From Paraphysomonas bandaiensis (taxonomy: Eukaryota > Protista > Chrysophyceae), in assembly GCA_965644295.1 (NCBI GenBank), contig CBFFRP010000410.1:288307-352306 (forward strand): DNA of 64,000 bases, in the 5' to 3' direction. The stretch's first letter is position 1, and every line of letters starts with the position of its first letter. Below, in pieces: positions 9,945 through 64,000 of this stretch. The notes under the pieces were generated by a model. It worked only from the letters and a program-made list of their open reading frames with translations, did no database searches and had not been told where the DNA came from. Position numbers and translations under genes: made by a program.

Positions 9945-10074
9945 GAGGAGAGGTGGAATGAATATGAGTGAGTGTGGTTTATGGCCCATTGGCATGCAGC
10001 TGTACACCTCACCTCACCTCACACGCTTCTAGTTGTCACTCCATCTGTGTTTACATTACAATCAGAAAAGAAAA

Positions 10075-10621: not shown

Positions 10622-11012
10622 ATCGCTATTGAGCATCAATTTAATAGCCATAGTTAATGTTTCTCTACATATGTAGCACCACGCCGACCCTTGCGCTCAC
10701 TATAAGAATGATATAATCCTTGTATTGAATATTGTAGAAGCTATATTTTGTCGGACGGTCTTGGTGTTGGAAGCAGTTGTTGTTGCAGATGTTATCATAT
10801 TCATATACATACGCACCAACGAAATCTAAAATTAAAAACTTTTTCGATTCAATTGTAGTTGTAGTTAATGGTTAACCCTATAGATAATGCCCCTACCATC
10901 CAAACTTCATTTAGTCATTTATTTTCTAAAACCTGCTGTGTGGCATATATGTGTTTCGTGGAATAATAATTGTAAAAGAAGCGAGGTTATGAAGACTGCT
11001 CCTCAGGTAGCT

Positions 11013-11180
11013 AATGGGTCCATTAACCATTAAATCGAATCCCTAAAATCTAAACTATATTAAAATATTTTAAAAGTAATATAATTCATTTGTATATAAC
11101 ATTTTAATATATTATTTGATATATATCTTTTATATATTATATAAAAGGGTTGAGGGCTTATAGTTACATAGTTACTCTTA
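11013..11180 (+). mobile_element. Short relic of a PLV-like terminus
   Basis: AATGGGTCC(ATTAACC)ATTAAATCGAATCCCTAAAATCTA matches 51544-51576 and is followed by a very AT-rich tract. Confidence 0.6.
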
Positions 11181-22001: not shown

Positions 22002-22494
22002 AATATTCAGGTAACTGTGACGACAACACACTGAGGGCCTATGAGCAGGCGAGGTTAATAATAAGTATCCCTGAACCCGTTTGTTAGGTGAAGGTGTTGG
22101 TGTTATGGGAGTGTATGTGCGTATATGTGTGTATACATATATATGCACTGTGGTATGGTGCTGTTGTATATCCATACTGCATACTCTGCATTGTACAACG
22201 AACAACACAGCGGTATGTATCGTACACTGTATTCTCGGTATTCGAGGACATACCATGAACATACGGTGATGAGTCCCTAAGCATGTCTCAGTGTACACAC
22301 CGCCGCACATATAAACAGAGCGACGAAGCAAAGGCACACCATCTAAGACACGGCTGCCCATTTAGGCCATAGAAGTCTTTGAGTATGAGTCAACGAGTGT
22401 TCTTCCCTAACAGACACATATCAGTATAGATAAGAGCCGTACAGATACACACTCACACTTATAGATAGATAGATATAGATACTGTGCTTACGTT

Positions 22495-23939: not shown

Positions 23940-25155
23940 TACAATGCGATAAGTAGAGCAGTGATTTATATATAAATGCATGTTGTATTTTAGTGAAATT
24001 GAAAGAATTGTATATCGTATAGTGGTTGCACAAGTGATACGTTCTCTACTTATATTCCGAAGGAATATATATAATTGACGAAACGAATGGATTGATTACA
24101 AGTACTTCCTACTTATTTGAAAATGAGATAAATGAAATTACAATGATGCAAACTGTAGAGGAGCAGAATTTCATGTTTGAGGAGGAAGCTATAATATTAC
24201 AGGTCATTGAAAACGTGGATGTTGATGGCAAATACAGAGACACAGGTGGTTATTAAGCAAAGAGATTGATAAGTCATATCATCGGGTAAAGAAGTAAGGA
24301 GTTGAAATCCAAAATCAGATATACAAATTGTGTGCTCTCTACATTCAATGCTTGTACGATTGATCAATCCAGCTAAGCTTATTATATTAGTGTTGCGTTA
24401 ATGAATCTATCCAGAAACTCTTCCTATGATATTATTTCTGAGAACTAATCAAAAATTTAGTTTAAAAGCATACATACTTCAATAATATGGTATTGTACAG
24501 CATGCAGTTATACACCAATACTCAAATAAGTATTGACATTCATGTGTGAAATTACCAGCACAAGGACCACTAGTAACATAATTACGAGAGCTTTGCATAA
24601 TAAATCTCAAGTTATTCTTGAATCAATGACTTCATAGTGAATTATGGGTGCAGCAAGCGATTGCTGTTCGCTCAGTGTCATATCACATCCACTGAATGAT
24701 ATGAAACTCAAGGATATCAATATCATATATATCGTCAATCACAACAATACCAGACATCAGCATCATACCAATTGGAAGGTTGATGGTCATACTCCAAGCA
24801 CATGAGAGTACTTTATGTACATAATCCAATGGCTGTGTATCTTATGCATCTATCTGGAGACGATATCTAAATTCGAATAATATATAGACATGCCAATGAA
24901 TGAGCTCACTGCCCTAATATCTTTCGGATAGGCTAATTCTCTAATTGCCTTGACTGTTTCCGGATTCGCGTACTTGCCAAGAGGTCTAAATCCATCAATA
25001 ATAAACCCGAGGTAAGCTATTCGAGGATAATTTACATCCACCTTAGAGCTCTTGACAAGTACCCGAATCCGGAAACAGTCAAGGCGATTAGAGAATAGAG
25101 AATTATCCTATCCGAAAGATATTAGGGCAGTGAGCTCATTCATTGGCATGACTAT
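23940..25155. mobile_element. Degenerate Ty3/Gypsy fragments with an internal inverted duplication
   Basis: YLGFII...NPETVKAIRELAYPKDIRAVSSFIGMSIYY is the Gypsy RT C-terminal signature; protease-like SGCTSDTF near 24020; 24884-24983 is inverted at 25049-25155. Confidence 0.65.
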
Positions 25156-46486: not shown

Positions 46487-47469
46487 TCGATACTTTAATA
46501 TTTTCTGTGTTGACGTTACTAAATTCAGAGCAAGAACCTTATTATTGTAGTAGTAAACTTGATATCACTTTAGTACTAAATCTGTACTGGTAAATTCATT
46601 TTCACAATTGTCCTATTATAGCTTTCTTCATTCATATAGCTCAGAAATATTGTCTATTAAGCTTTATACATATAAATAATTTTTTAGCTACACTTACAAT
46701 TGCAACATGTATTAAAATTATTGATCCCACCATTCATTTTTATTATTATTGCTTTACAATAAAATCATATAAACGTCTTAGGGGCTATTTTGTTGACTGT
46801 TAACAGAATTGTACCTTGAAAAAAATTGTAACGACTACGGGTGGTTGAGCCTCGCTATCATGACTAACATTGCTGGTCTTATCATCCCTGTCCATGTGCA
46901 CAGGTGATGTGGGGTAGGATAGTCTTCTCACAACACTCTTCACTTAACTTCCTCTTCTTACTCTTTACTTCGCTACTTCTTAACTTTCAACTCAACTACG
47001 ATATCAACTCTCTACTATATCTAAAAATCCATATCCTTCTACCTATATCCCCATAGTTAATTCTAGAAGCGGTTTCCCAGCCATAAATAGCTAGTTTTCA
47101 ACTTCCAGAAATAATAATATAGAAAACCCTTAACATCCTGCTATCTACTCCTATAGCATCCTACAGAATATCTACCTATACCATCATAATACTATACGGG
47201 TTACCATAAACGTCCGTTACGTCCGTATATACGGATAGTTCCGGTACCCTCCAACCCTATATATCTGGCCTTAATACTCGTATCTTCTAATCTAATCATA
47301 ACTACCATCTACATCTCATCTCATACTACAACCTACATCACTTCATCTTGTTCTTAAGCCATCATAACAACCTCCTAAATCACCCATACTTGTCATACCC
47401 AATTTTGCTACACAATATTTTTCATTGGCATCATAATACGAAAACCTATAAACTATAAACTACTAGTAA

Positions 47470-47891
47470 TGAATGTATTATTGTTAATTGTTAGCAATAG
47501 TAGTGAACATCTGATTATTAGCAATAGGCATGTAAAAGTCAGAACTAATGTAGCTCTAAACAATTAACTAACTAGTGCTTAAGTGCTTAACGCTCAACTC
47601 TGATATACTACTATCTAGCGCAACGAAAGCTGCTTGTGGGTCACCGCGTCACCTCAAACACCAAGGTGCAGCCCTTTCGCTCTATCACTCAAAGCAAACG
47701 CAGTGAGCAAGCAGAATTGATATACCTGACATCTGCTGACTTCATGATTTTTGAGTCCTTAAGGTGAACTTCCCAGCAGGCAGCCCAATAGCCCAATACC
47801 CCGGATTCCCTTGAGGTGAGACAAATCCAGTATCCCTGTTTATTCGTCAAGGCCCAATGACATCTACAAAAGTTACAATTATTGTACCACA
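47470..47891. mobile_element. Solo LTR of the Copia family seen at 4021-5349
   Basis: Colinear match to 4021-4280 followed by 5240-5349; ends TGTACCACA, as at 5349. Confidence 0.7.
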
Positions 47892-48430
47892 CAAGCATTT
47901 GGTCTTATAGAAACAATGAAAGGAGAAAGTACCAGTGGGCTCTACACTCTACACTATAGCTACACTCTCGGAACGAGACAATTATATATCATTTTCCAGC
48001 CAGCATTAGTCATTTTTGAAGTCCCAATTTCAATAATATGGATATGTAAGTCACTGACATACACCTCAGCCAGAACGTCACAAAAAGTAAGACCTGAGCA
48101 TTGCTCTTCTATTCTGCCTCACTTAACACAACGCCGGTATGATTATAGGATGTTTGATTAATTTATCCGTATTCACCAGTTATTAAAATCACACCTAATT
48201 GAAATCAAATGTACACATACCAAAAACAAACACTTTGTAGATTTTCAACAATCTCTAACACAGTTATTTCATCTGACTCCTCAGTGCATCACAACTGAGT
48301 TTAAAGCATGAACATCAACGATAAAAAATACCATATCAGTAATATAATAAGTGTCTTGCATCGCTAAAATACAAATACATATGTAACTTGGGAGATTCGC
48401 GCAAGTAATCGACTACTCCATGGATGCTGT

Positions 48431-50112
48431 TCATCTACATGACAACGATGAAGGGTTAGGAGTGGAATTAATCAGAGATGATATTTTCTTGTTTAATTCC
48501 GTGAATGCAGTGTGGAACTCCATGATATCGCCCTTGCCCCTTCTCACCTGTGTGTGCATGCAACATTTAAAGATTACAAATGCAAAAGAAAACTATAACC
48601 TCTAACAAAGATATGGTCCCTGGATCTGCTAAAACGGCATATATCTGAACTGATATTCCAATCATTCCTTTGGCCGTTAAAAGAGTTGCCTTTGCCTTCA
48701 TATTACTTGATTGTTGTGCAGTAACCTCAAATCCCATTTCACGAAGTGCCTCCGTTACGCCACTCATCAGCCGATCGGGGCTTGAGTAGCTAGTGAACTG
48801 AAACGTTCTCTTGGTTACTTTATCCGCCCGTGGTCGAAAAACTCTATCCAATGCGAATCCACCACATTGATTGACCAAGTCAAATGCATTCAGATGTTTC
48901 GGTGCCCGTGTTACTTCTTGCTGGCCATTATCACTGTCTGCCTCTTCAGCGTCTTCCACCGCGTTTTGAACTCCAGCCTCAATTTCCTTTTCCGTAGGAA
49001 CTCTGGGAACTGCACGGCTGCTCTCGTGCCCTCCATCAGCAGGAGCACCTGCCCTTCGGCGAGAATCTCTTCCACTTCCCATCACAGGTTTGCTGTCATC
49101 AGGTGGTTTATCCTGATCTTCATTTGCCGCAGATCTTGCGGCAGCAACTATGTTATTAAGTGAAGGCGTTGGATGATAGCTCTTCGGCCCATCATCAAAT
49201 GTAACCCACGGGTGATTTCGCACATCAGTCAGAGTTACTCGTTCCTTTGGATCAGCAACCAAAATCGAATCCAAAAGCGAACGAACTTCAGCAGAAAACC
49301 ACGACGGATAGGTGAAATCTGCCGCTTGAATCTTCGAAAATAAGGCCACAATGGTCGATTCGTCGAAAGGAAGAAACCCGGCAAGAAGAACATACAGTAT
49401 AACTCCAATACTCCATACGTCTGCCTTCTTCCCTTCGTAACCGCGGTCAGCAAGAACCTCTGGGGCCACGTAATTTGGAGTTCCGCAAGTTGTGTGCAAT
49501 AACTCTGTACGGGATGCACCATCACCATCAGCATCACCTACATATAACGACGACAGCCCAAAGTCGCTTATCTTAAGGTTTCCTTGCTCATCTAGGAGTA
49601 AGTTTTCTGGTTTCAAATCTCGGTGACATACTCCTAACCCATGACAGTATTCAACTCCTTCAACCAATTGGCGGAAATAAAAGCGAGCCATTTCTTCTGA
49701 AAAGCGGCCTTCGCTGACAATCTTATCGAACAGTTCCCCGCCAGTTACCAACTCCAAGACAATAAATATTTTCGTTCGCGATGCTAAAACTTCTTTCATG
49801 CCTACAACATACTGATGTCTTACAATCTTCATGATTGATATTTCCTTCTTGATCTGTGGGCCCATATTTTGCTTCTGAATTTTTTCTTTGTCCAGAACCT
49901 GCAGAACCCTCCAGTAAGAAACGACTGAAGCAGAGCGCACAGAATACCTTAATTGCAACAGGCTCTGAAGTTTCAGTGTTGACTGCATACTTAACCCTTA
50001 ACGAACAGCCATATCAATAAATTAAAATAGACGGAATTAGAGTGACGTACTTTCCGAACGTGCCTTCACCAAGAGTGCGAAACAGCTCGTACTTTCCGAC
50101 TTTTTTAACCAT
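48431..50112 (-). CDS. CIPK/SnRK3-like kinase with NAF domain, copy 2
   Basis: Near-identical to 20317-22001 including introns; 12-bp deletion (SGAD); different C-terminus ...INSTPNPSSLSCR*. Confidence 0.88.
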
Positions 50113-50601
50113 AATATTCAGGTAACTGTGACGACAACACACTGAGGGCCTATGAGCAGGCAAGCACTGTTCTGTGCAGCTAACTCTAACTGGAAACACA
50201 GCCCAATCTTCGCATGTGTGTATTTCATGATGCATGATTTATGATTCATATGATATCCTCAACAAGATGAACAAAAATAGCAGGATTTTAGGAAAAAACA
50301 GTCTAATATTAAGGTAAGGGTGGGAAGAATATACAGTATTTCCCATAATCCTGAAATCAGAATACCGAATACGCAGCAGTATACCCTGTATGTACAGAGT
50401 TGGAGTTGTGGCCTCTCTGGCATTTTTTACCACCATCAGACAGGCACTCTCACTGCACACTTTAATGCACCGCAGAAGTGATACTGTCATCAACACCAGC
50501 GAAGTTGCTCTATCTCTATTGTACTATTTTTACCTGAAAGAATCAACTAAGTTTTAGCTTGTACCTTCTCCACTAGTGCTTCGGTCATAAGAGAATTGAA
50601 G

Positions 50602-51227
50602 ATGGGCGGATGCTGTCCCTGTTGGAATTCTAATGGCAACTAGATTATTTAGCACATATTATTACTAACTTCTTACAAATAGATCACAGCAGTGAATATA
50701 CCCCCATTAACCCCCGTGAACCATCTAATTCTCCCGATGTGCTTCCCGATATGAACAAATCCCAATACTATCAAACAGTTGTTGATTCTGCGCAGAGGTA
50801 TGGCCCATATATTGTATTCGTGAGTACAGCCGTGAAGCTCCCTGTAAATGTAGAAAATTTATCAATTCAAGTAGCCTCAGGGTGGTTCCAATGACTGCTG
50901 ATTCAGAGGATTTAAAGTAAGTAACACCACTGTATTGAGGTCTGTGACCATTCACTTCTTAGGTCGCGCGTTACAGAAGCGAATATTGCCCTCGACGTGC
51001 TCATTTCACCACGTAATGGCAGAAATTGGGTTCAATGGGAAAGTAATTCATCATCACAGCAGGTTGTTGATATTTTAAGTGAGCCAGTCGCTGTGAACAA
51101 CTATGACATTGTTGCTGATGAAATGGCTGAAATGGTAGCCAAGCATACATTTACCCTGAATGTTGACGACAGCATGAATAATTCTACTGTTGCATCCTTT
51201 AAGCCGGTCAGTTCTGCGATGGTATAA
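50602..51227 (+). CDS. N-acylated small protein, LAMTOR1/Ego1-like
   Basis: MGGCCPC myristoyl/palmitoyl start. Three introns (first GC-AG 50636-50682 with TACTAAC branch point) give one open frame including YQTVVDSAQRKFIN. Confidence 0.55.
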
Positions 51228-52070
51228 TGCGTATAGTGTTAGTTGACCCCACTATGTTGAGGTGTGTTGTTATTAGAGAAATAAGCGTTTGATTAACTGA
51301 GTAGTAACGACAATGAAACGTAGTGTTTGGTATTGCTTGAAGTACTAGAATCGATTAAACAAATTTGTTGTCATAAGATATTTACGCCATTTGGCGAACT
51401 TTACCAAGATCAAGCACCCATCCCATATCTCATAGCTATCGGCATATGCTTTCAGGAAAAATAAAAATCTGTGCGACAAATGTATCGATGTGTAGTACCC
51501 TAAAAAAAAAAAGCGGGATGGCTTATACGCTCCGCTTGCAGGCAATGGGTCCGTTAAATCGAATCCCTAAAATCTATACCTTATTATTTTCCCATAAAAT
51601 AAACAAGAATAATTAGAACGCCCGAATTGCGGAGCAATTTGCGACCAGGGGGGAGGATCTTTAGATCCGGAGGGAGCCTGGTATATTATTCTGAATGTTT
51701 TATATTAATGTAATATCAATCTTTTTTATATATCTTTTATGTATATCTATATTAATAATTCTTCTTATATTATTTCGATTACTAATATCCTATTTATAAA
51801 TTGACATTTTGGCATTGGCATTTTATAGTAAAATAATCTGGCTGAAATAATATTTTATAAAATAGAGTTTCAAAAGTATAAATTGCCAGCGCCTAAATGC
51901 CATCGTCGTTATTATAGTTAAGAGTAGAAAACAGCTCGCCACCATACCTACTACACTATCTTATCGTACCCACACAATAGCGTCATCACTGTCTACTTAT
52001 GTACTATGTCTTTAAGTCATATCGATATTTAAAAAAGGTTTAAAGAATTGATTTGTTGATTACATACCTA

Positions 52071-52124
52071 AAGTATTTTTTATATTAAAACTACTTAAAG
52101 AATTACAAATATAGTATTATTATA
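52071..52124 (+). promoter_or_regulatory. Viral promoter-like block (ACTTAAA motif), duplicated at 52495-52550
   Basis: AAGTATTTTTTATATTAAAACTACTTAAAGAAT is identical at 52071 and 52495; ACTTAAA also precedes ATGs at 54340, 54739 and 57123. Confidence 0.7.
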
Positions 52125-52466
52125 ATGAACGAAACTTTAGACAAACCTGTTTTGATGATGACAAAATTAGAGCAAGATGAAATAAGACAATCTGATGAAT
52201 ACAAAAAAGCTATCAAGTACATACCTTATCTATTTAAAACCCGCAAAACCTTTAATAATAGGCAATGGTCTTATGGAATGAAGCACACTGTAGAAAGATA
52301 CATACGGACTTATAATCTTGAGAACAATTATTACGTTTCTAATAATGCTTTAATATTGGGTATGATAGATTCGGGTTTCAAAGCAAAGCATGAATCTAAC
52401 ACTCAAAATTATATATTCAATTTCACAGAAACTATTATCAACAAAAATATGAGAAAACAACGATAG
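52125..52466 (+). CDS. PLV small protein (SYGxKHxxE...YxSN motif; probably DNA-binding)
   Basis: WSYGMKHTVE...YYVSNNALILGMIDSGF motif, recalled from phage/viral replication loci; preceded by the ACTTAAA motif. Confidence 0.6.
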   Translation: MNETLDKPVLMMTKLEQDEIRQSDEYKKAIKYIPYLFKTRKTFNNRQWSYGMKHTVERYIRTYNLENNYYVSNNALILGMIDSGFKAKHESNTQNYIFNFTETIINKNMRKQR

Positions 52467-52554
52467 AGCCTATTTTTATTTATATTGTCAAATTAAGTAT
52501 TTTTTATATTAAAACTACTTAAAGAATATTTATATATAGTATTATTATAAAAGA

Positions 52555-54297
52555 ATGAATTTTGAAAATTCGATTTTACTGACCTCTGAGGAGATTGAAC
52601 AACTTGTCACTTCTATGTTTCCAAATGACAAGGCAAATACTATTGCCAAAGGATTATGTAACTACTGCTTCATTAACAAAGGAATGATATACTTTCTTGA
52701 ATCTAATATTACATATTCACAGCTACCTTTAAGTGTAGGAAAATCTAAGTTAGTTACTATTATTACGAGTTATATACAGAAATCTTTTCAATCTTTAAGC
52801 GAATACAAACAAGAAATATTGAAATTAAAATACGAAAAATTTTACAAAATATTTCTTAATGCATCTGTATTACAGTATTACGATCAAATAATAACAGTAC
52901 TAGAAATAAAGAAAGTAGTATTTGATACAACGCCCTATGAGATACATTTTAATAATGGATATTATGATCTTCAGCATAATAAATTCAAACAAAGAGAATT
53001 ACACAAACATTATGTTACGCAATATATTCAAAGAGATTATGTAAAGTCTAGTGAAGATGAACGCGATAAAATGATGGAACATATTAGAAAAATTTATCCT
53101 GATAACGAAGATATGAATTGTATTCTTTTAACGCTTGGTTCTGCTCTCAGTGGTAAGTCTAACGTTGATCAAGATACGTTATTTCTCTTGGGAGTAGCGT
53201 CCGCTGGGAAATCGTTTATAATGGAATTATCACAAAAAACATTTGAATGTTACTTTAAAGAATTAAAAAATGACACTTTTAGTCACAACAACAGTAAGAT
53301 TGATAAAATTTTAAATAGTTTTGCAAACAACCCTCAAATTAGGATTACATGGGTTAATGAAATCAAAGATGTTAAAATAGACGAAACACTATTCAAAAAG
53401 TTTTGTGAAGGAAAACTACAAACAACTAAATTATATGAAGATGAATCTCATGATATAACTCATAATTCAAAATCTTTTATAACGGCTAATACTATGCCTA
53501 GTATGAAAATAGATTCCGGTGTAGTTAGACGATTTAAAGGATACACGCATGTAAGTAAGTTTGTAGATAATCCTGATGAAGTGGATGAATCTAATCACAT
53601 TTACCTTAAAGATAAGTACCTACTCGATAATATAGTAAAACACAATCTATTGAATGCATGGTTTGACATATTAGCAAAGTATTGTTACAAGTGGTCAAAA
53701 GGAGAAAAGCCCAAATTTAATAAGAATTTTACAGAAACAAAAGATTCAGTTGTCAATACTAATGACATAATGCAAGACTTTATAGATGGTTATTTCATAA
53801 AAACAGATAAATCATCTGACAGGATAAGTAAAGAACTAATGGAAACATATTTCAAGAAACAATATCCTGATAAACATTTATCAATGGTACAACTGATAAC
53901 ATCATTAAAAGATAAAGGTTTACACTACAATGCTAGTATGCGCGTTGACGGTGTTCGTGGTTGTTTTACAAATATTAAACTGCGAATGAAAAAACTTCTT
54001 AAAAGTGGCGAAGAAAAACGAACCGATTTGACAGAGTACACAATTCAATTAGAAAACGAAATAGAAACATATAAAGATGAAATTGAATATCTTAAACAGC
54101 AATTAAGTATGTTCAATAGACAATCTAAATCAATCAAGTCAAAAAATTCTAAGATGGTCAAAGTTAAGAAAGTTACTTTTGAATATGATACTGACAATGA
54201 CGATGAACCCATACCCGAAACATTTAAAACAAATATATTTAAACAACAAAAAATTGAAAAAGAAGAATTAAATGAAATTATTGATTTACTAAATTAA
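52555..54297 (+). CDS. D5-like superfamily 3 helicase (no AEP primase domain seen)
   Basis: D5_N-like IHFNNGYYDL; Walker A GVASAGKS; Walker B TWVNE; motif C TANTMP; DSGVVRR arginine finger. Confidence 0.88.
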   Translation: MNFENSILLTSEEIEQLVTSMFPNDKANTIAKGLCNYCFINKGMIYFLESNITYSQLPLSVGKSKLVTIITSYIQKSFQSLSEYKQEILKLKYEKFYKIFLNASVLQYYDQIITVLEIKKVVFDTTPYEIHFNNGYYDLQHNKFKQRELHKHYVTQYIQRDYVKSSEDERDKMMEHIRKIYPDNEDMNCILLTLGSALSGKSNVDQDTLFLLGVASAGKSFIMELSQKTFECYFKELKNDTFSHNNSKIDKILNSFANNPQIRITWVNEIKDVKIDETLFKKFCEGKLQTTKLYEDESHDITHNSKSFITANTMPSMKIDSGVVRRFKGYTHVSKFVDNPDEVDESNHIYLKDKYLLDNIVKHNLLNAWFDILAKYCYKWSKGEKPKFNKNFTETKDSVVNTNDIMQDFIDGYFIKTDKSSDRISKELMETYFKKQYPDKHLSMVQLITSLKDKGLHYNASMRVDGVRGCFTNIKLRMKKLLKSGEEKRTDLTEYTIQLENEIETYKDEIEYLKQQLSMFNRQSKSIKSKNSKMVKVKKVTFEYDTDNDDEPIPETFKTNIFKQQKIEKEELNEIIDLLN

Positions 54298-54339
54298 AAA
54301 GTACTTAAAAAATTATTATATATAGTTTAGTTATATATA

Positions 54340-54693
54340 ATGGTAAAAAAGTCTGTTTACACTAAAAAGATTATCAAAGAGAAAACTGTGAAGCACGGAA
54401 AAGAACGAACAATACAATTGTACAGAAATGACAAAAAGAATAATATCTCTGCTCAAGATGTACGCGATATTGTACAAGGATTGCAAAATTCAGATCCAAA
54501 TAAACTATTTATGGTGCGCGCTTTAAACGCAGCCAGATGGAGCACACTCAAAGGATTTTATAGTGACCTAAATGTTGATGATGAAGAAGATTATTATGCA
54601 AATAGAGTCAAAGACACAGATAAGTTTTCAAAGTTCTCACAATTGCAAATTACTGCCTTTGTACCCGATGATATTGAGGATAATTTTGTTTAA
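54340..54693 (+). CDS. PLV protein, candidate stand-alone terminal protein
   Basis: Directly upstream of pPolB with the same upstream motif; RWSTLKGF...DDEEDYY acidic Tyr segment. Function is inference. Confidence 0.5.
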   Translation: MVKKSVYTKKIIKEKTVKHGKERTIQLYRNDKKNNISAQDVRDIVQGLQNSDPNKLFMVRALNAARWSTLKGFYSDLNVDDEEDYYANRVKDTDKFSKFSQLQITAFVPDDIEDNFV

Positions 54694-54738
54694 TATAAAA
54701 CTACTTAAAAAATAATTAATATAATAATAATATATAGA

Positions 54739-55989
54739 ATGTATTTTTATTATAAAATGAATAGTGCCATGTACAGAGTTTTAGATGTTAAGAACTACAT
54801 CTTTTCAGACATGTCACATGAGAAATGTATGAAATTAGAATATGCGTATCAATTGTTTAAAGGATACGAAGCATCAGATGAAGGAATAAAACAGTATGGT
54901 AAAGATTTCAGGGCGTGGTGTAGAGAGATGAGATTTACTAAAAACTTGTCAATTGATTACAAAAAATTTCATTCACACTTGGGCGCTGTTAAATGTGTCT
55001 TTATGCAATATTGTAAAGGAAAATATGAACATCATAAAAAGATTAAAAAAATAGAAAATGGATACTTTCAAGATTGTTACAATGCAGGTTTACAGTTTTG
55101 CGAGCCGGGAGTATTTAATTCATATGGATACGATTTTAGTGGATTTTATCCATCTCTATTGATAGATGATAACTTTTTAATACCAACAAAGAAAGGAAAA
55201 GAAAAATACTTAAAGAAGTTAAAAAAACGTTCTAAACTTAAATACGGAATATACAGAGTTAAAATTACATCTGATAATAAAAACTTTAAAAAGATATTTT
55301 CATTTTCTCCAAAACATACATATACTCATATATCTCTAAAACATGCAATGAAATGCAAAAAGAAATTTGATGTAAATATTGAGTTAATTGTTGATGATAA
55401 ACCAAACGCATACATATACAGAACAAAAGATTTAGTAAAAGCAAGTGAAATATTTGCAGAATGGTACAATCGTTTAATTCAGTTAAAAAAGTTGTATCCC
55501 AACAACAAACTTGTAAAGCATTTGATGTCATCGCTATGGGGAACGTTAACGCAGTACAATATGATATATAAATCATATGATGAATTAGAAAATGAAGGTT
55601 ATGACTGGGGATATACAAAGGAATGCGATTATATTGTACAGGATAAGTATATGTCAGCACATAGTAACGATGAAGAGAATTATAAACTTTTAGATTCAAA
55701 TAATCCTTTTAAATACAATATTAGACTACTTCCGTTTTTGCTTTCATATGCAAGAAACAAAATAGCAGAAGTGGCATTGAAGGATATTGACAACGTCATT
55801 CGTATTCACACAGATAACGTTACTTTTAAGAAAGATCCAAAATTAGATATACCCAATCTATTGCGAGAAGATAAAACTTCGGGTATGATTGAATGGAGAC
55901 ATGTAAATGGATACAATCATATATGTCCAAAGTGTGACGAGCGACTTAAATACAAGGACATAAAAACACATATTGAAGAATGTTGTTAA
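54739..55989 (+). CDS. Short protein-primed-type family B DNA polymerase (no exonuclease motifs; C-terminal C2HC zinc finger)
   Basis: YNAG (YxGG), motif A YDFSGFYPS, TPR1-like YGIYRVKI..YTH, motif B KHLMSSLWG, motif C RIHTDN; tail CPKC-x11-H-x3-C. Confidence 0.85.
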   Translation: MYFYYKMNSAMYRVLDVKNYIFSDMSHEKCMKLEYAYQLFKGYEASDEGIKQYGKDFRAWCREMRFTKNLSIDYKKFHSHLGAVKCVFMQYCKGKYEHHKKIKKIENGYFQDCYNAGLQFCEPGVFNSYGYDFSGFYPSLLIDDNFLIPTKKGKEKYLKKLKKRSKLKYGIYRVKITSDNKNFKKIFSFSPKHTYTHISLKHAMKCKKKFDVNIELIVDDKPNAYIYRTKDLVKASEIFAEWYNRLIQLKKLYPNNKLVKHLMSSLWGTLTQYNMIYKSYDELENEGYDWGYTKECDYIVQDKYMSAHSNDEENYKLLDSNNPFKYNIRLLPFLLSYARNKIAEVALKDIDNVIRIHTDNVTFKKDPKLDIPNLLREDKTSGMIEWRHVNGYNHICPKCDERLKYKDIKTHIEECC

Positions 55990-57032
55990 CGTTTTTTCTT
56001 TTTCTTAATGCTTTTATCAAAATCATCTAATAACTTTTTATCAACAGTTTTTAGTAAATCACTTTTAGCATACCATCCCGCGTCTTTTTTTAACTCTCCA
56101 TACATCCAAACTTGATAGTGATTTTCGCCATCAAAAAATCGCTTATCAAGAATCTTTTTAATTTCAACTTGTTCTTCTTCGGCATCAGGTGCAGGCATTA
56201 GTTCATCTTCTGTAAAGGATGCATTTTTAATACCACTTAACATATATCTGTATGTAACTTTTCCAGGATAATACAATATTTGTTTAATTTGTACAGGTAT
56301 AGGGTCAAAGCGGAAGTCACCTTCTCGGAACACATCAGAATTAATAGTTTCATTTAAAGCATTTTTGGGTTTGTCTAATTTTCGATACACAAAGTCACCC
56401 ACATTATATTTAGGTTTTGATTTGGTTGTGTCTGGAACAGGATACTTATGTGTTGCCAAGTCAATATTAGACACATCTTTCTTCCTTAGTTTATTCAAAT
56501 CTATTCTTAGCTTATCAACTATATCAGTCCATTCTCTATAAATTTTTCCAGTTTTTAACTCAATGCTATTCATATAACCATTAAAAAATCTGCCTAATGT
56601 TCTATTTAAACTCTCCACTGCTGACATTTGTTTATGTCGTCCCGCTAATGCAACGCTATGTAAAATACTTTCGTCGTACAAATATTTTGCAAAACCTTTT
56701 TTAAATGATGCACCGCCATCTGTTCGAATAGAAGCGTACGGTTTATTAAGATGATTACGTTGAAATATAGCCTTTATTGCTTTTAAAGTTTCATCAGAGT
56801 TTTCTGTTTTCATTGGTTCCATATCAAACTCATCAGTTGCCAAATCAACAACAACTAATAAATATTGATATCCTTTTTTATCTTTTGGTAAATGCAACAC
56901 ATCCGCCATAAAGTTATAATCTTCTTTAAGTGGTATATTATCTTTTATTCGATTATATCTTTTCTTCTTGGTTTGTTTACTTGGTCTTGTTAATGTTTCA
57001 TCGATATCATATTTTTTAATAAGATCATTCAT
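55986..57032 (-). CDS. Retroviral-type (rve) DDE integrase with C-terminal chromodomain
   Basis: FMADVLHLP, IRTDGGASF and AVESLNRTL form the D-D-E triad; PKYNVGDFV SH3-like segment; EIKKILDKR...YQVW...AGWYAKSDL chromo-like tail. Confidence 0.9.
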   Translation of the reverse strand: MNDLIKKYDIDETLTRPSKQTKKKRYNRIKDNIPLKEDYNFMADVLHLPKDKKGYQYLLVVVDLATDEFDMEPMKTENSDETLKAIKAIFQRNHLNKPYASIRTDGGASFKKGFAKYLYDESILHSVALAGRHKQMSAVESLNRTLGRFFNGYMNSIELKTGKIYREWTDIVDKLRIDLNKLRKKDVSNIDLATHKYPVPDTTKSKPKYNVGDFVYRKLDKPKNALNETINSDVFREGDFRFDPIPVQIKQILYYPGKVTYRYMLSGIKNASFTEDELMPAPDAEEEQVEIKKILDKRFFDGENHYQVWMYGELKKDAGWYAKSDLLKTVDKKLLDDFDKSIKKKKKR

Positions 57033-57122
57033 AATGATATATAATACACATATAAAAAATATAAATAAACTAACTTAGTAAAAAACACTTAAAAAGAAAT
57101 TAATATATAAGAGTATAGTATA

Positions 57123-57467
57123 ATGAACAAAGAATCAAGAAGAGAGTATAATAAAAAATACTACGCTGAAAAGAAAAGCGCAATATGTGCAAAGCTATTT
57201 GAAAAAGAAGAATGTTTAAAATGTGGCAGAATAGTATCACATCAAAATATGAAGAAACATCAAGCATCAAAAGTATGCATGACAACGGCAGAGAGAAAAC
57301 AAGCAAAGTTAAATGTTTCAAGCGAATTAGAAGCAATAAAACAAGAATTAGAAGACATTAAGAAATCTAAACAAGATTCATTGATGTATTGTTGGGGATG
57401 TCAAGAATCATTTACAGAATCTCAAAAAACTAAACATAAATGTTCAAGTAAACATAGAAATCTTTAA
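57123..57467 (+). CDS. PLV zinc-finger protein
   Basis: CLKCG...HQASKVC and CWGC...HKC motifs; ACTTAAA upstream. Confidence 0.7.
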   Translation: MNKESRREYNKKYYAEKKSAICAKLFEKEECLKCGRIVSHQNMKKHQASKVCMTTAERKQAKLNVSSELEAIKQELEDIKKSKQDSLMYCWGCQESFTESQKTKHKCSSKHRNL

Positions 57468-57748
57468 GTAAAATTTATTATAAATGTATCATCATCGATA
57501 ACTTTATATTTTTTCTGTTTTTTCCTTTTGGTATCCTTTTTTGTGTGTACCCATTTCTTATATTCTTTGTTCTCTTTAAGTGTTTTAATTTTAGTATAAT
57601 AATAGTTTCTAGCATACTCATTACATTTAGCTTTATTATTAAAATAGTAAATTCTATTTCGAATCAATAATGTGTCTCTGTTCTTTAAGTAATATTCATG
57701 ATTATACTGTTTAAGTTTCTCTTTATTCATTATTATATCAATAATCAA
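57464..57748 (-). CDS. PLV small Lys/Tyr-rich protein
   Basis: KQYNHEYYLKNR..EYARNYYY repeats of the kind seen in AT-rich dsDNA viruses; stop overlaps the neighbour's stop in TTAA. Confidence 0.55.
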   Translation of the reverse strand: MIIDIIMNKEKLKQYNHEYYLKNRDTLLIRNRIYYFNNKAKCNEYARNYYYTKIKTLKENKEYKKWVHTKKDTKRKKQKKYKVIDDDTFIINFT

Positions 57749-57754
57749 TAAAAT

Positions 57755-58323
57755 TATAAAATGGCAAGTATCATAGGTAATAGTAATATTTTAAAAGCTT
57801 TTGTTATAGCTATATCAACGGCTCGCTCTGTTGCTGACCGCAAAAAAAACGTGCTACTCTCTTCCAATTACGCCTAATAAAATTCATTTTTTAATTCGTG
57901 GAAGTAATATCTCAACCATTTTGACAATTAATTCCCGATGTCATTATTGAAATATTTTTTAACCGCTTCAGCTTCAACCGCTAGTTTTTTCTATCACCAG
58001 ATTTCGGTTTTGCTTGATAAAATTTTCAACTGCTTGACAAGTAAATAATAGAATTTGTTCATTGTATTTATTTGAATCAGGATCAAAGAGATCTAAAACG
58101 AGATTGGATTTTAGTAACTAATTCGTACTGTTGATTTTCAAGTTTAATCTCTTTTAATTTTGTCAGAAAGTCCATTTAATCCCAACATTAAATAGTTTTT
58201 TGTGCTGGAATCGATCGATGTCTGAAACTACATTCACGTTTAACTTCAGCTTTCTATCTCTTTAGTTTCTTCAACTCCTAGAGGTCTGTTGTTGTCGTTG
58301 TCTTTAATAACTACTTTTCTCAT
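57755..58323 (-). pseudogene. PLV hypothetical protein with hydrophobic C-terminus (frameshifted as read)
   Basis: MRKVVIKDNDNNRP... can be joined across several 1-nt shifts to ...RRNWKRVARFF...KILLLPMILAIL. Confidence 0.45.
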
Positions 58324-58363
58324 TTATATAATTGTGACACAAAATATTTTAAACGTTTTATAT

Positions 58364-59424
58364 TCAAGCGAAACCCTCATCTGAGATATCACTGCGCCAT
58401 CCATCTGCCAAATTCGACTTTCTTTTCTTGGGAGTAAAATATTCTGCTGGTACCGGTGTGCTTGGTGGCTTGATTTTATGAGTTCGGACATGATGCTTTG
58501 TTCTTAGTTTATGCATGTTCTCATCCTCTATTTCATCTTTTTGTTTTATATTCATTTCTGTTCGTCTTGTTGAGACTCATTTGTCCGGTAATTGGTTCCA
58601 TATTGACAAACAAGCCTTCTAATCCTTGTCTCATGTGTCTTTTTTCATAGTGATTTTTGGCTCTAATTGCTTTATCGGCATCATAGTCCTCTGCCTCCAT
58701 ACCTTCTCTGTTCAATCTTTCCTTTTCTTGTCTTTACTACGTTGAACTAATTGTTTTGTTGCTTCTTTCTGTTTTTGAGTTCTGCCTTTTGGTTTAGCTA
58801 ATTTAGTTTGTGGCTCTAAAGGCAAATCCTCAACATCATCATCTAATTCTTCAATCTGATCATTTGATTTAAATTCTAATGGCTGTGTATACATCAAATC
58901 ATTGCTTGTAGATATTGGTGGTGCGGGGTTGATGGTATTATCTGCCTTGCTGGATATATCAATGGCTCTTCTACGTTGCGCAGTTTTTTGTTTTTGAGAT
59001 GTTGGACCCATAATTAAATTTCCAGCTGGAGATTTAGAGACTTTAATATTTCCAGATGCGTACCCGTCATTAGCTAATTTTGCAAATTTGAAAGTCTCTT
59101 TAACTCTTCTGGTACATTTTCAAGTCTCAACACTCCTTCATTGGCGGGGTTCTTGGGATTATTTCTAGCTTCATTTAATTGTCCTCGCAATATATCAATC
59201 TCTCTTCTGTCAATGGTTGAGCTATGTACAGCACCCACACCGGAAACACCTCCTATTCCGCCCCCACCAAATTGCTTATTTACACCTGTACCAAAATTAG
59301 TTTTCTTTTTCCCTTTAGCTTTGCGCTTTTTCTTTGTTCTTTTTCTTTTTAAAATCAAATCTGGTGCAATACCATAAAGTTTATGTAAGTCGTCAAGAGA
59401 TAAATAGATTTTCTTCTCCTTCAT
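58364..59424 (-). pseudogene. PLV basic low-complexity protein (one gene split into four ORFs by frameshifts)
   Basis: Abutting or overlapping minus-strand ORFs 59074-59424, 58712-59011, 58533-58715 and 58364-58555; poly-Lys/Arg N-terminus. Confidence 0.5.
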
Positions 59425-59453
59425 TAGTATTTATATAATAGTGAAAGATAATA

Positions 59454-60013
59454 TTATGCGAAATAATCATCTGAATTAAATGTCACATGTCTTTGTGTAG
59501 CGGGTTGTCTTTGTATAGATACTTGTTCATCTTCTGATTCTGATTCAGATTCTGATGATTCAACAACAATTGTTCTCTTTTTTTGGTTTTCTTTTTTGAT
59601 GGTCTTTTAACAACTATAACCTCTTCATCTGATTCTGAATCATCATATATTATTTTTTGTCTAGGAGCTCGTTTAACAACAGGCCTTGGTGCTGGTTTTG
59701 GTTCGGGATCTGTCTTTGTTACTGATTGCTCTTCTTGATGTTTGGCTAATAATTGAGCATAATGTAATTCCTTTTCTTGTTGCCTCTTTAAAGCATTCTC
59801 TGCTCTCTTTTGTCTAGCCTTTTCAAATGCTTGTAGCTGGGCTTGTGTTTTAGGCTTTGTCGGTCACTCTTTTCTTTTTTCACAGGAGGCGGACTGAATA
59901 GGTGCTTGGGGTGTGTTAACAGGCTCCTCTGGTATGGCTGCGAGTTGTTTGACCTGTCTTTTCGGCTTTGTTAGAGGAATTGATTCTTCTATATATTCTT
60001 CGGGTTCTACCAT
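59454..60013 (-). pseudogene. PLV charged protein (KPKTQAQLQAFEKAR type), frameshifted as read
   Basis: Manual translation MVEPEEYIEE...KPKTQAQLQAFEKARQKR...ESSESESESEDE...NSDDYFA*. Confidence 0.55.
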
Positions 60014-60073
60014 TATATAGTTACTGGTATGAAAAAATATTTACAAAATATTAATATATTTACTCATAATATA

Positions 60074-60806
60074 ATGAAAATAACAGAAACACCTTCTGAT
60101 TTGCCTAATACAGCACCTATTAAAGAAGTTATGGACGTCTATATACCAAACATCAATGAACACTTACCACGTCGAAATGGGTTTATATATACTTTAATAG
60201 GATCTGGCGGATCAGGAAAAAACAAGTTTATTATTGTCAATGTTTAAGTCATCTAGATTTTACAGAGCCAAATTTGATAATATATACTTAATCACCCCAC
60301 AGAGTAGCTTTCTCAGTGTCTCGCGATCATCCATTTGGAACGCATGGAAAGGTATATCATGAATTAACACCGGAATTATTGGATATAATATATGATGAAT
60401 TATCAAACTTAAAAGAAAGTAATATAGAGCAGGAGTATTCCTCCAGAATATAATTTAGTTATTATTGATGATTATGCAAATCATTTAAAAGACAATGTTT
60501 TAATTAAACATTTGAACAGAATGCTTATCAAAGCAAGACATTTAAATACAGCTTTTGTTTTTACGTTACAATCATATAATTTATTTCCATTAACATTGAG
60601 AAAAACAAATAACTAACATGACTTTGTTTAAACCTAAAAATCAACAAGAGTGGACAGTTGTAACATCAGAACTTATTAAATCATGACAAAAGATAATGCT
60701 GTTGAGCTCTATGATTATGTTTATGATAAAAACTATAATCATTTAGATGCTGATACAGTTGAAAACAAATTATTTAAAAAACTTTAACACGCTATCAATT
60801 GGATAA
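60074..60806 (+). CDS. A32-like (FtsK-HerA) genome packaging ATPase, frameshifted as read
   Basis: Walker A GSGGSGK; Walker B LVIIDD; KARH arginine finger and TLQSY motif; joined across homopolymer indels. Confidence 0.85.
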
Positions 60807-60832
60807 TAATTAATATCTAATTAATATATATA

Positions 60833-61180
60833 ATGAACAGTGATACAGAAAATGATTCAGCCGAATTGCAATATGATTCTGAAACGCAGTATTATTTATC
60901 ATCCGACTCAGAGGATGAACTACCGGATGAACTTGAAGTTATCAGGTCAGACCAAAACGCTTAGATGAAGTTATAGACCTAAATATGTTACACTACAACG
61001 ATTCTTTTAAAAGACGAGGAATAAGTCACGTATTAAACAATATGCCAAATGGAACAGGTTTTCACATTCCAGGATGGCAACAAGTACTTGAAAACTATTG
61101 CTGAAAATATAAGTGATTCTCCACTAGAGGAGTTAATGAATAGAAAAATATATGATTGTAATAATATAGATGAGCGATAA
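60833..61180 (+). CDS. PLV small acidic protein, frameshifted as read
   Basis: MNSDTENDSAELQYDSE...GTGFHIPGWQQVL; AT-rich TATATA-ATG upstream. Confidence 0.45.
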
Positions 61181-61911
61181 ACTATGTATCTTTTAAATAG
61201 TAAGAGTGCAAATAGATATATATCAGGTAATACATCAGATTGTATATTTCATTTACCTGTTATCAACATACCAAAACATAGGAAGATATTTTGTTCGGTT
61301 CAAACGGCGATGCCACACTTTATTCATTTTTATAACATTAGTTCAATTAATAACACTTTAAAATATACAGTCAATGGTGGTGGAGTACAAACATGTAGCT
61401 ATTACAGAAGGAAATTATAACGTTAATACCTTGATAACAGCAATTACAACTGGCATACCCGCTTTAACAATCACGTATAACAGCAAAACAAACAAATTAA
61501 CCTTTTCACATAGTACATATGATTTTACATTTGAATCAAATAGTACTTGGTTGGAAGGATTCTTGGTTTTACAGATGATACAACATACTCGTCAACGTCA
61601 CAAGTGCTTACAAGTACCATATCAATTAATTTATTCACAATTAGAAATGTTTATGTTACATCTGATAACTTTCAAATCAATAATATTAACAATTCAACAC
61701 CTAATAAAAGTAATATATTATGCAGTATTCCTGTAGATTCTTCCCATCACAGTATGATCAGTTACTCATAATATATACAATGTTCGTAATATGATCTATA
61801 ATGTTCATAATTTAACAAATTTACATGTTAAACTCACGGATCAAAGATGATGATGTGCTTGATCTGAATGGAGTTCATTGGTCTTTAACTCTAGAGCTTG
61901 TTATAGAATAA
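61170..61911 (+). CDS. Minor capsid (penton, single jelly-roll) protein, frameshifted as read
   Basis: LNSK..N, ITEGNYNVNTL, RILGF, ILCSIPV and terminal LTDQ..DLNGVHWSLTLEL motifs typical of PLV pentons. Confidence 0.8.
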
Positions 61912-61932
61912 TTAAATATAGTGTATATATAC

Positions 61933-62300
61933 ATGAAACTAGGTAAGAAGTTTGATCGAGGTGTTCAACTGGTCACAAAATAGATAAGAAGGCTCATCAA
62001 TTAGGGCATAAATCTCACGACGTACTTCAAAAAGCACAAAAGATCAACCGTAAAGTGGTTAATACTGGATCAAAAGTTTTACACAACGTTAGAAAGGGGG
62101 TTGATATAGCCGACGCTGTTTTAGGTACAGCAGTAGATGCTGGCGCTGGAAATGTCCCTGTACTTGGAGATGGTATGGCTTTAGCAAGTAAAGGATTGCA
62201 TGGTGCTAGAAAAGGGCTTGATAAAGGAGATAAGGCCTTACAAATATAAGAACGCAAGTAACAAAGCAACAACCTTCCCAACAACGCGCTTGTTGTTCTG
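61933..62300 (+). CDS. PLV small amphipathic LGxK-repeat protein (candidate virion protein)
   Basis: MKLGKKFDRGVQLG.KIDKKAHQLGHK...VPVLGDGMALASKGL; lies between penton and MCP; 3' end uncertain. Confidence 0.55.
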
Positions 62301-63603
62301 AAAAAGGTTCTGTTTTTAAAAGATTAACATGACATGTTTGCTGATGATGATTCTCTTGCCAACATTCTTCTCTAAATGAACATATGATTGTGTTGGTCGG
62401 CTTTCTTTTATCTTCTTATCTTAATAATGATGCTAAAAATTCCCGTAGCAACGGCGATTAGGTGCCTCCTGTCAGCACTGCTCTTTTTTATTTAATGATG
62501 ACGTGACCTGCCTGATCCAGGCTGGGGCTTATATTATTTATTTCTACATGAAACTCAGATCTCTGTTGGCGGTCTACAATCAACTCCTATAAATTCCTGA
62601 CAGGCTGTGAGCAACTGCAATGGAGCAGACAATGCCGCTGTGCCGTTGGATAAGGGCAGAACTCACGGACTGCTGTTCATGAGGCTGTGAACTTTCTCAG
62701 CGGTTTATCAGACAAGCACTGAAGGCTGTTGAGAGTATTGCAAGCATCCTATGACTTCTTATTTATGCGCCATTTTGCAACAATCCAAATTCTACTTGGG
62801 CCTGAAGTCTTTCTTCTTGACTGCAGTTTAACGAAGTTCTTGTGTGATGCGTTTTAATTCCATGATAGCAGTGCAGTGCCTCTGCTAAAGACTGGAAGCT
62901 TAATGGTAACCTGAAGGACACTGCCTTACTCTTCAGTGAAAAACTGTGTGTTGATTTGACAACACAGTTTTGCAGTGCTCTTCTGGAAATGCTACTGAAC
63001 TGCCAACTATGCCATCTATGTGTGTTCTTTTCTGTTGTTTGACTCTCTCTTGCAAAAATAATTGTTTATCAGAAATAGACTTCAGCCCTAATTTTAACAC
63101 TTGTAACAGTTAACCATTCTGGCTTTTTTTCTGTCTAACATGATGTGCTGTGGTTGTGCTGTCATTTATGGGAGCTATGATGTGCCTAATAGATACAAAT
63201 ATTGTTCTCTTTACCTGATGAAGACTTCTTTGAACATGATTGTTCTATGGAGAACTCTGTTACAATCTGCTCATTCATAAGCAGTATATGATTTTATCTA
63301 TATACCTTTATTAAATTCAATGACACAAATTCTGCTGCAACAGAAGAGTATAAAACATTTCTTCTTTGTTTTCTTATAGGTTATTTCTCTTGTAATTCTC
63401 ATGTTTCTGCTGTAGCTGAGATTGCATTCCCAGGTTCATATCAGCTCTTAAGGCCTTTCTGGTTTTCAGCTGAAGCTACTAGGCTATGGTGGCATTTATG
63501 GATATAGTCACAGACAAATGGATTTAGGAAGATTATGATGTTGATGTCTGCAGTTTAATGCTGGGGCAGGGGTGTGTATGAATTGATTTGCTGCTCAGTT
63601 CAG

Positions 63604-63812
63604 GCTTTCTTTGTTGGTATGGATCTTGAAACATATATTCAAATGCTGATAAAGATTCTATCTACTCAGGATACAATACCTCTAATGATGATGTGTTTTG
63701 GCACTGTACATATAACGCAAATGCAACAACACCATCCGTAAGATTTGATACATACGCTATGTATGACGCTGTTATGGTGTGTGAAGCCGGAGTCTGCTAC
63801 ACTCAATTCTGA
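63604..63812 (+). CDS. C-terminal fragment of PLV major capsid protein (double jelly-roll); not in the ORF track
   Basis: AFFVGMDLETY/SNADKDSIYSGYNTSNDDVF...RFDTYAMYDAVMVCEAGVCYTQF* (one +2 shift) fits the PLV MCP C-terminal pattern F-x-G-x-D-L-E...SG-x-NT...YD-x-V. Confidence 0.75.
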
Positions 63813-63853
63813 GATAAATAAATACATTTAAAGATTTGTTGATACATTAGAGT

Positions 63854-64000
63854 ATGCCTGATTATCAGAAAGGAAAGATTTATAAAATTGAAGGAGGTGG
63901 AAAAACTTATTACGGATCCCACATGTGAGAGCAGTGTCAAATCGGCTTGCACAGCATAGATATGCTCGTGATAGATATAACCGAGGACAAGCAAGCATCA
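63854..64000 (+). CDS. GIY-YIG endonuclease, 5' part
   Basis: MPDYQKGKIYKIEGGGKTYYGS...RLAQH; ATTTAAAGA upstream. Confidence 0.8.

Follow-up and report, generated by a model that had tools for sequence, protein, structure and literature searches.

A virus-like block at one end of a stretch of protist DNA

Does the AT-rich right end of a stretch of protist DNA hold an integrated virus, and if it does, how would that virus copy its DNA? The question is raised by a 64,000-nucleotide stretch of the Paraphysomonas bandaiensis genome (GenBank assembly GCA_965644295.1, contig CBFFRP010000410.1, positions 288,307 to 352,306 of the forward strand), hereafter called the window. Our analysis leads us to conclude, with near certainty, that an endogenous Polinton-like virus (PLV) lies in a protist chromosome there, inserted at 51501/51502. 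The window carries 12.5 kb of the element and only one of its ends, the right end lying beyond the window. GC content falls from about 0.40 in host DNA to 0.25-0.36 from about 51.6 kb onward, a measured drop that bears out the abrupt AT-rich block described in a first-pass annotation of this DNA. Profiles or folds likewise uphold most of the gene set listed there, namely a superfamily 3 (SF3) helicase, a protein-primed family B DNA polymerase (pPolB), an rve-type integrase (rve-INT), an A32-like packaging ATPase, a penton protein and the C-terminus of a major capsid protein (MCP); the start of a GIY-YIG nuclease gene is recognised weakly. The helicase (580 aa), pPolB (416 aa) and rve-INT (348 aa) form the mavirus-like trio pointed out at that time, and their frames are open, in agreement with the earlier statement that the replication and integration genes are intact; all left-arm frames are. 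The element alone adds little that is new because endogenous PLVs are frequent in protists and have been described before. The new point, judging from sequence comparisons, is a likely stand-alone terminal protein (TP) paired with a palm-only pPolB devoid of a vOTU domain.

The helicase (52555-54297, plus strand) is a stand-alone protein of the D5 type that matches D5_N at E 3e-4, and its family alignment matches poxvirus D5 and African swine fever virus C962R at E values of 5e-16 to 5e-14. It aligns only with the helicase part of D5 (profile positions 118-416). We take residues 213, 266 and 309 to mark Walker A, a Walker B-like motif and a motif C-like motif, respectively. The integrase gene (55986-57032, minus strand) lies tail to tail with that of pPolB, with a 4-nt overlap; its product carries D44, D105 and E140 and matches Pfam rve at E 1.9e-7 (31.7 bits for a cut-off of 32.6).

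A palm-only polymerase next to a candidate terminal protein

The pPolB gene (54739-55989, plus strand) encodes 416 residues, and the predicted model of its product (pLDDT 94.6) is closest to the phi29 polymerase (E 1e-9, Z 18.9, root-mean-square deviation (rmsd) 4.7, 343 aligned residues). The whole model covers phi29 residues 58-542 and starts at residue 57-58 in four of five phi29 rows; because the alignment begins at this point, the ExoI region is absent. All 33 of the sequences compared carry D132 and D359. In motif C another residue stands in place of the first Asp, a change shared with the mavirus pPolB, which is treated as still active (PMC11071308, excerpt; here and below, "excerpt" marks a source cited from part of its text). 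A polymerase of 416 aa leaves no room for a TP or vOTU domain, and a profile built from the Cys/His region of the long relatives has no match in the element (best E 0.22).

These long relatives, of 695 aa, are homologous in their C-terminal half to the 416-aa protein (probability 100, E 9e-45). One of them is encoded by L021, a locus with the same MCP family and no separate gene of the type described below. The long pPolBs have an extra N-terminal region and a middle part in which Cys198 and His275 are invariant in 42 of 42 sequences, and which we infer by analogy to be a vOTU. In a pPolB tree built by a quick method (47 rows, drawn from the midpoint), 30 short and 17 long sequences fall on opposite sides of one branch; this does not show one origin, because the two sets came from separate queries.

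Immediately upstream of pPolB, positions 54340-54693 of the plus strand encode a conserved 117-aa protein that gene linkage and hhalign comparison mark as a candidate PRD1-like TP, with Tyr85 as the candidate linking residue. Its homologs accompany the short pPolB on 10 of the 11 distinct contigs on which that gene is complete, adjacent in nine and one open reading frame (ORF) away in L098; on the exception, L095, the contig ends 162 nt upstream of pPolB, so that the count is 10 of 10 wherever upstream DNA exists. The family comprises 664 clusters, the best 150 of which are all 74-162 aa long. All 135 of the members aligned carry Tyr85, with Gly or Pro at +3 in 47%. PRD1-like TPs have an LF/PAD-like fold of four strands and two helices, and their linking residue is a Ser or Tyr ahead of the last strand with a Gly or Pro close by. 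Compared by hhalign, the family aligns with the N-terminal domain of long pPolBs (L021 residues 89-177) over 82 columns at E 2.1e-4, and Tyr85 pairs with a Tyr conserved in 79% of the long pPolBs. The score of 35.3 contrasts with 11.7-15.2 for four unrelated alignments and 12.1 for the reversed one, and was reached in none of 60 column shuffles and none of 60 block shuffles. For 43 of 56 long polymerases, the segment best matched by the 117-aa profile ends at or before residue 200. In a decoy test, 17 of 135 members and 0 of 247 decoys scored at least 8 bits, a difference inflated by relatedness and by spurious decoy ORFs.

Linkage and this specific, if weak, homology to the N-terminal domain of long pPolBs lead us to regard the 117-aa protein as a likely stand-alone TP, in a split arrangement that the first-pass annotation did not mention. 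Several observations weigh against this assignment. The hhalign probability is low, at 46%, or 16% under another match-state rule; the N-terminus of the long pPolBs is read as TP-vOTU by analogy with mavirus; and Tyr85 apparently sits at a helix end, as judged from the sequence pattern, whereas published linking residues sit in loops. Searches with the family in Pfam (135 members), PDB sequences and the Atlas returned nothing usable. An 11-sequence profile of the family reached E 0.012 at best against the long pPolBs and gave nothing against L021 alone.

The 117-aa protein could instead be another replication accessory, for instance a DNA-binding or processivity factor, in an element otherwise as described and primed by another route. 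The homology that speaks for a TP is only at E 2e-4, no database names the family, and the case is made from sequence comparison. Yet the polymerase is phi29-like with no priming domain of its own, the helicase corresponds to the D5 helicase part alone, the weak match sits where mavirus-type pPolBs carry their TP, and the sole invariant residue is a Tyr. We consider such an accessory role unlikely, although it deserves to be kept in view, and retain the TP assignment in what follows.

Separate TP genes are known from adenoviruses and one coral polinton, other eukaryotic systems having the TP fused to the polymerase (PMC11071308/PMC11161782, excerpts). The arrangement proposed here resembles that of adenoviruses, PRD1 and the coral polinton in that the TP is encoded apart from the polymerase (PMC11161782). 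It differs in that the adenovirus and coral polinton polymerases keep vOTU and exonuclease, and in that the TPs of PRD1 and adenovirus, stand-alone proteins too, carry helical extensions, whereas the candidate has about 110 aa and its polymerase about 400 aa (PMC11161782). In the literature searched, which covered few subscription journals, we found no description of a TP split from a palm-only pPolB, nor of a PLV with an A-tract terminus or a split polymerase.

The capsid arm and its frameshifts

Everything to the right of about 57.5 kb is frameshifted, a feature absent from the first-pass annotation. Seven frame pieces of the ATPase (60074-60810, plus strand) cover profile positions 2-243 of 246; Pox_A32 matches one of the window's pieces at E 1.9e-3 and the intact ATPase of the related locus L085 at 1e-12. 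Five pieces of the penton, a minor capsid protein (61184-61910, plus strand), cover positions 10-242 of 249, and the penton family matches the penton variant P1v1 of Paramecium bursaria chlorella virus 1 (PBCV-1) at E 7e-8. In the MCP slot (62330-63812, plus strand), 63595-63812 alone is recognisable, the remainder being unreadable and of the expected length. This C-terminus, about 70 of some 460 positions, scores 114, against 16-23 for six shuffles, the reverse strand and three host stretches; that so little of the MCP is recognisable was also missing from the earlier description. The closest MCP relatives have 478-493 aa, placing the start near 62.35 kb. The slot size of about 1.45 kb given earlier stands, although not as an oddity, being normal for a family of about 440-500 aa. 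The modelled MCP of the relative L001 is a double jelly roll (Z 27.9 to a PBCV-1 chain, rmsd 3.3, 343 aligned residues), with Z scores of 18.9 and 19.2 against the mavirus and Sputnik MCPs, and one Atlas neighbour cluster of the MCP contains Sputnik MCP families in 29% of its members. The MCP fragment matches a family with a double jelly-roll member, and the ATPase pieces match an A32 profile, as the earlier identification would have it. As had been noted for the space between ATPase and penton, no maturation protease is recognisable in the part of the element seen (best E 0.18, with a profile from two unverified ORFs). The probable GIY-YIG gene start (63854-64000, plus strand), cut by the window end, amounts to a weak match of 22 residues at E 0.0025 with a profile built for this analysis and no match in Pfam; a GIY-YIG gene lies downstream of the MCP gene in L001, L003, L004 and others.

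Are these breaks in the DNA or in the assembly? Compared with L085, the window is free of frame-breaking gaps over the 2,860 bases aligned to the left of 57,000; to the right of 57,500, 39 such gaps fall within 2,412 bases, 27 of them insertions and 12 deletions in the window. We aligned Logan contigs of sequencing runs (labelled X; six runs in all, four in a first set) to the window. At 60682, 61091, 61768 and 61843, taken from 12 of 186 indel rows, the contigs of four of four runs lack a single base that the window carries, with most or all of the depth behind the shorter version; at three of the four positions the profiles detect a frame change. The same frameshift artefact has been reported in endogenous viral elements of protists (PMC10120064 and PMC8547959, excerpts). 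Most probably, then, the breaks in the capsid arm are largely an assembly artefact, and the right arm is probably a poorly corrected long-read stretch. Part of the evidence pulls the other way. L085 is just 74% identical in the right half, so that part of the gaps is divergence; in Logan contigs, copies are collapsed and rare variants lost, so that single indels could be real in this one copy; and 62330-63590 has a CpG ratio of 0.27, compared with 0.65-0.84 elsewhere, and no MCP signal. Frameshift-tolerant profile alignment, nhmmer with 80 MCP genes, blastn and tblastx all failed to detect an MCP in that stretch, the length of which equals the missing part of a 480-aa MCP. Contig cover of the bin 62753-63386 is 0-1 in the four runs of the first set, whereas on either side it is 42-823 in three of them and 3.7-7.7 in the fourth; this gap carries no weight, as some records are removed by a filter.

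A more drastic reading is that the copy is truly decaying, with an intact left arm, a pseudogenised capsid arm in which foreign DNA has replaced part of the MCP, and mobilisation in trans. It would explain why breaks occur only in the right half while nearby host genes are clean (including a 2,896-codon open frame), and why 62330-63590 is odd in composition and without MCP similarity; the loss of rare variants from contigs favours it too, and decayed PLVs with intact integrases have been published (PMC12721341, excerpt). Against decay, frame changes alone cover the ATPase and penton profiles end to end, four of four runs differ from the window at identical indels, the unreadable stretch is as long as the missing MCP part, the insertion is young and absent from another strain, and the left arm shows 0-1 differences from X1 contigs over 0.7-1.7 kb. 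We therefore hold decay to be improbable and keep to an assembly artefact.

Left terminus and insertion polymorphism

The left junction was located with the same contigs. In X1 and X3, host contigs extend past 51501 by 31 and 34 letters, respectively, with zero substitutions, a crossing of the host-virus junction by short-read contigs where the first-pass annotation had called for long reads, and in X5 the same host contig diverges at 51501 into other sequence, i.e. an empty site. Element contigs of X5 and X9 are joined to other flanks at 51502-51504. An X1 contig spanning 51505-51850 has no differences from the window and a depth of 111, about threefold the 37.7 of the flank; because of this excess, 51502-51543 is assigned to the element. 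Taken together, flank-crossing contigs, empty site and X1 depth place the terminus at 51502, where the element begins with A11-GCGG. Position 51544, given earlier as the left boundary, is merely the point at which terminal variants converge; the proposed target site duplication (TSD) GCAGGC (51538-51543) falls inside the element, and the terminal inverted repeat (TIR) predicted from that boundary fails with it. The host bases at the insertion point are TACCCT (51496-51501), up to which the X5 host contig matches, and are the predicted TSD.

The non-coding left arm (51502-52124, plus strand), seen in contigs of X1, X5 and X9, presumably contains the TIR. Relatives L086 and L081 likewise begin with an A-tract followed by GCGG or CGGG, and L021 has five A at each of its two ends; the comparison covers these 3 of 102 loci, the majority of the set stopping short of an end. 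L086 measures 16.8 kb with a TIR of 286 nt (99%), and L021, at 18.4 kb, has TIRs too. A length of 15-30 kb with TIRs is typical of PLVs. In the window the hallmarks of integration are partial, the right end with its TIR and TSD lying outside, which is a point against the account.

The empty site in X5, a related strain, substantiates the earlier reading of a recently integrated endogenous PLV, and the insertion is very probably recent and polymorphic between strains. Across 13 studies, parts of 49500-59400 are present in 20 of 24 listed runs, and half or more of it in 12 of 24; near-identical sequence is also present in marine metagenomes. That the join is a chimeric assembly with free virus is hardly credible: the metagenome sequences, the poor quality of the right half, a bridge of just 31-34 letters on the viral side and the chance that one crossing run is the window's own source all favour a chimera, yet in two samples short-read contigs bridge the junction with no substitution, and in a third the site is empty at the same base.

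Per-contig depth is 38-40 for the flank and 57-144 for the element in X1, and 91-113 and 638-3099, respectively, in X5. These values suggest several element copies in both runs, and many copies or free DNA in X5, with the reservations that summed depth is not copy number and that amplification in the X5 library may have biased its depths. It is plausible that the element can be reactivated. Among element genes, the helicase has the lowest contig depth in X1 and X5. The polyA metatranscriptome runs X15 and X16 contain 0.37 of the sequence words and were not used as evidence of expression.

Two further checks gave negative results: the 9-mer AATGGGTCC, with one mismatch allowed, shows no excess over chance (6 seen, 9.4 expected), and a search for a small RNA gene at the junction gave no Rfam match below E 1.6. 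Within host DNA, 10974-11086 (plus strand) is a degenerate solo copy of the viral left terminus, with a 23-nt exact match (E 5e-7) and a local alignment to 51506-51614. AT-rich DNA follows this worn copy, which is possibly the scar of an older insertion.

A shared upstream motif and a model for replication

The sequence ACTTAAA stands upstream of all five plus-strand genes of the left arm. Among relatives the motif is found ahead of 9 of 20 helicase, 6 of 10 117-aa and 8 of 12 pPolB genes, usually at a distance of 31-46 nt from the start, for a shuffle expectation of 0.3-0.7. It was found upstream of none of 80 ATPase, 79 penton, 86 MCP, 52 lipase and 25 integrase genes. The pattern recalls the early promoter that PgVV has in common with its giant virus (bioRxiv 2022.07.28.501842, excerpt), where the motif is a different one. 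A literature search on ACTTAAA with giant-virus promoters returned one unrelated paper. By analogy with such systems, dependence on a giant virus helper may or may not apply, and we see the two as evenly balanced.

These elements can be combined into a model. The rve integrase would insert the linear genome via its inverted ends. At the A-tract end, the 117-aa protein would take the first nucleotide on Tyr85, and repeated terminal bases would permit sliding back of the phi29 type. The exonuclease-less palm polymerase would then elongate while the SF3 helicase unwinds, and a primer that is a separate protein from the start would make vOTU cleavage superfluous. Packaging of the DNA would fall to ATPase, penton and MCP. 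ACTTAAA would activate the replication genes together, as an early class, possibly via a co-infecting giant virus. We think it quite probable that the account as a whole, from PLV insertion through artefactual capsid breaks to protein priming with a separate TP, is correct.

Spread of the cassette and relation to known elements

The MCP family counts 1,241 proteins at E values up to 0.001 among 7,994 scored, and 79 loci in IMG/VR; in the DNA retrieved, most of these have larger helicases and lack a pPolB. For the short pPolB, 180 of 3,512 candidates proved to be relatives. Two related polymerases occur in Epipyxis, and an IMG/VR scan with a single pPolB protein found nothing. Gene order in L001 is that of the window, accessory genes aside, and a lipase gene occurs in 56 of 104 relatives' loci. 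The cassette of replication genes also stands beside MCPs of about 25% identity or less to the L001 type, in L086, L091, L092 and L098. Because of the 1,241 MCP relatives, the 79 IMG/VR loci and the publication of the gene set as pMVRE group 1, the lineage is not rare. The earlier suggestion of an undescribed lineage therefore does not stand in the sense of rarity; it may still hold in the sense of a formally unnamed group, the MCP having been matched to no named PLV group. In the search for a group name, three short motifs were absent from three supplements of PMC10120064, six contig names were absent from eight supplements of PMC13215967, and for six IMG identifiers no locus matched in the two rows shown from PMC7805220 (excerpt).

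By gene content, the closest published description is pMVRE group 1, palm-only pPolB elements with SF3 helicase, RVE and MCP that are frequent in ochrophytes (PMC13215967, excerpt). Shared features are the truncated, palm-retaining pPolB, the stand-alone SF3 helicase, RVE, MCP and GIY-YIG, as well as the occurrence in protist genomes and aquatic metagenomes (PMC13215967, excerpt). DUF5906, found in five of eight helicases of the cassette, adds to the likeness; a further trait of the group is that its pPolB falls with mavirus in trees. The main text of PMC13215967 differs in containing none of the terms "terminal protein", "vOTU" and "TP domain".

With mavirus and the endogenous mavirus-like elements (EMALEs) of Cafeteria, the element shares the SF3 helicase, an exonuclease-poor pPolB with the motif C change, and rve-INT (PMC8547959; PMC11071308/PMC11161782, excerpts), along with low GC and strain-specific insertion sites (PMC8547959, excerpt). 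It differs in that the mavirus pPolB is a TP-vOTU-PALM fusion whereas here PALM stands alone and the TP is likely separate (PMC11071308, excerpt), in its MCP family of about 440-500 aa with 8% identity to the mavirus MCP in a fold alignment, and in the lack of a recognised protease in the part seen. As in PLVs, MCP, penton and A32 ATPase occur together, with no protease recognised in the part seen (PMC4642659, PMC7805220 and bioRxiv 10.64898/2026.06.19.733378, excerpts); a lipase is common in relatives, and some published PLVs have pPolB and RVE. Maverick-Polintons (Polintoviricetes) share pPolB and rve-INT but have a full-length TP-vOTU-EXO-PALM polymerase, compared with 416 aa and no ExoI region here.

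Movement of replication genes between capsid types has precedents: pPolB and RVE occur together in 28 viruses of several MCP groups (PMC7805220, excerpt), and pPolB and a DDE integrase move jointly between capsid types (bioRxiv 2026.10.13.758929, excerpt). In our set, L081 and L082, the latter part of a giant-virus bin of metagenome-assembled genomes, carry the same cassette beside different ATPases and a protease-like ORF of 183-192 aa that Pfam does not confirm; this context suggests that virophages carry the cassette too. We lean, with some reserve, towards a widespread mobile cassette (SF3 helicase, 110-aa TP, 400-aa palm-only and vOTU-less pPolB, rve integrase, A-tract ends and its own early promoter) that would amount to a minimal system of protein priming in eukaryotes and to one more independent split of the TP, crossing very different capsid types, still inserting here and maybe amplified or replicating in some strains. 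If so, a primer of 110 aa and a polymerase of 400 aa with no vOTU would form a minimal priming pair, testable in vitro through a named candidate residue, and 664 unannotated clusters would gain a function. Filled and empty alleles in related strains make integration, target duplication and reactivation by a giant virus directly testable.

Other genes of the element and flanking host DNA

Upstream of the helicase, an intact 113-aa ORF (52125-52466, plus strand) with ACTTAAA before it has no assigned function; its homolog in L072 is 43% identical over 75 aa (E 1e-10). To the right of the integrase, two small basic ORFs (57123-57748), of 114 aa on the plus strand and 94 aa on the minus strand, have counterparts in L085. 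L085 is 90% identical to the window over the 117-aa gene, pPolB and integrase, whereas the helicase differs (25% identity); the comparison, noted at L085 positions 6572-8170, is read as a recent swap of the helicase gene. Three frameshifted, unassigned ORFs (57780-60050, minus strand) correspond by blastx to intact ORFs of 160, 370 and 180 aa in L085. A small basic ORF before the MCP gene (61933-62330, plus strand) is frameshifted, with an open frame at 61956-62246 and no homolog among the relatives' loci compared.

Host DNA to the left is eukaryotic and intron-containing, with genes for VPS13, a NAF-domain kinase, an adenylate/guanylate cyclase, ANAPC2 and a leucine-rich repeat protein. This gene set, the related Epipyxis polymerases and the marine metagenomes among the runs with matching sequence would suit a marine stramenopile, perhaps a chrysophyte, as host. 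None of six proteins encoded in the window has a letter-for-letter counterpart in the collection searched. A 51-codon open frame on the minus strand (51348-51500), with no Pfam match, begins at the insertion point, and the insertion may interrupt a host exon. A repeat at about 46900-47900, partial copies of which lie at 4041-4284 and 18961-19011, has a very high copy number, its summed contig depth exceeding 10,000 in three runs; it is probably a family resembling miniature inverted-repeat transposable elements or short interspersed nuclear elements. Foldback elements made of nested inverted repeats occupy 18343-19431 and 24884-25155 (arm complementarity 88-100%), and short tandem arrays of 10-nt and 14-nt units lie at 9539-9951. 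The CIPK-like NAF-domain kinase gene is present in two copies 28 kb apart (20327-22053 and 48450-50164), 97.7% identical and both with open frames.

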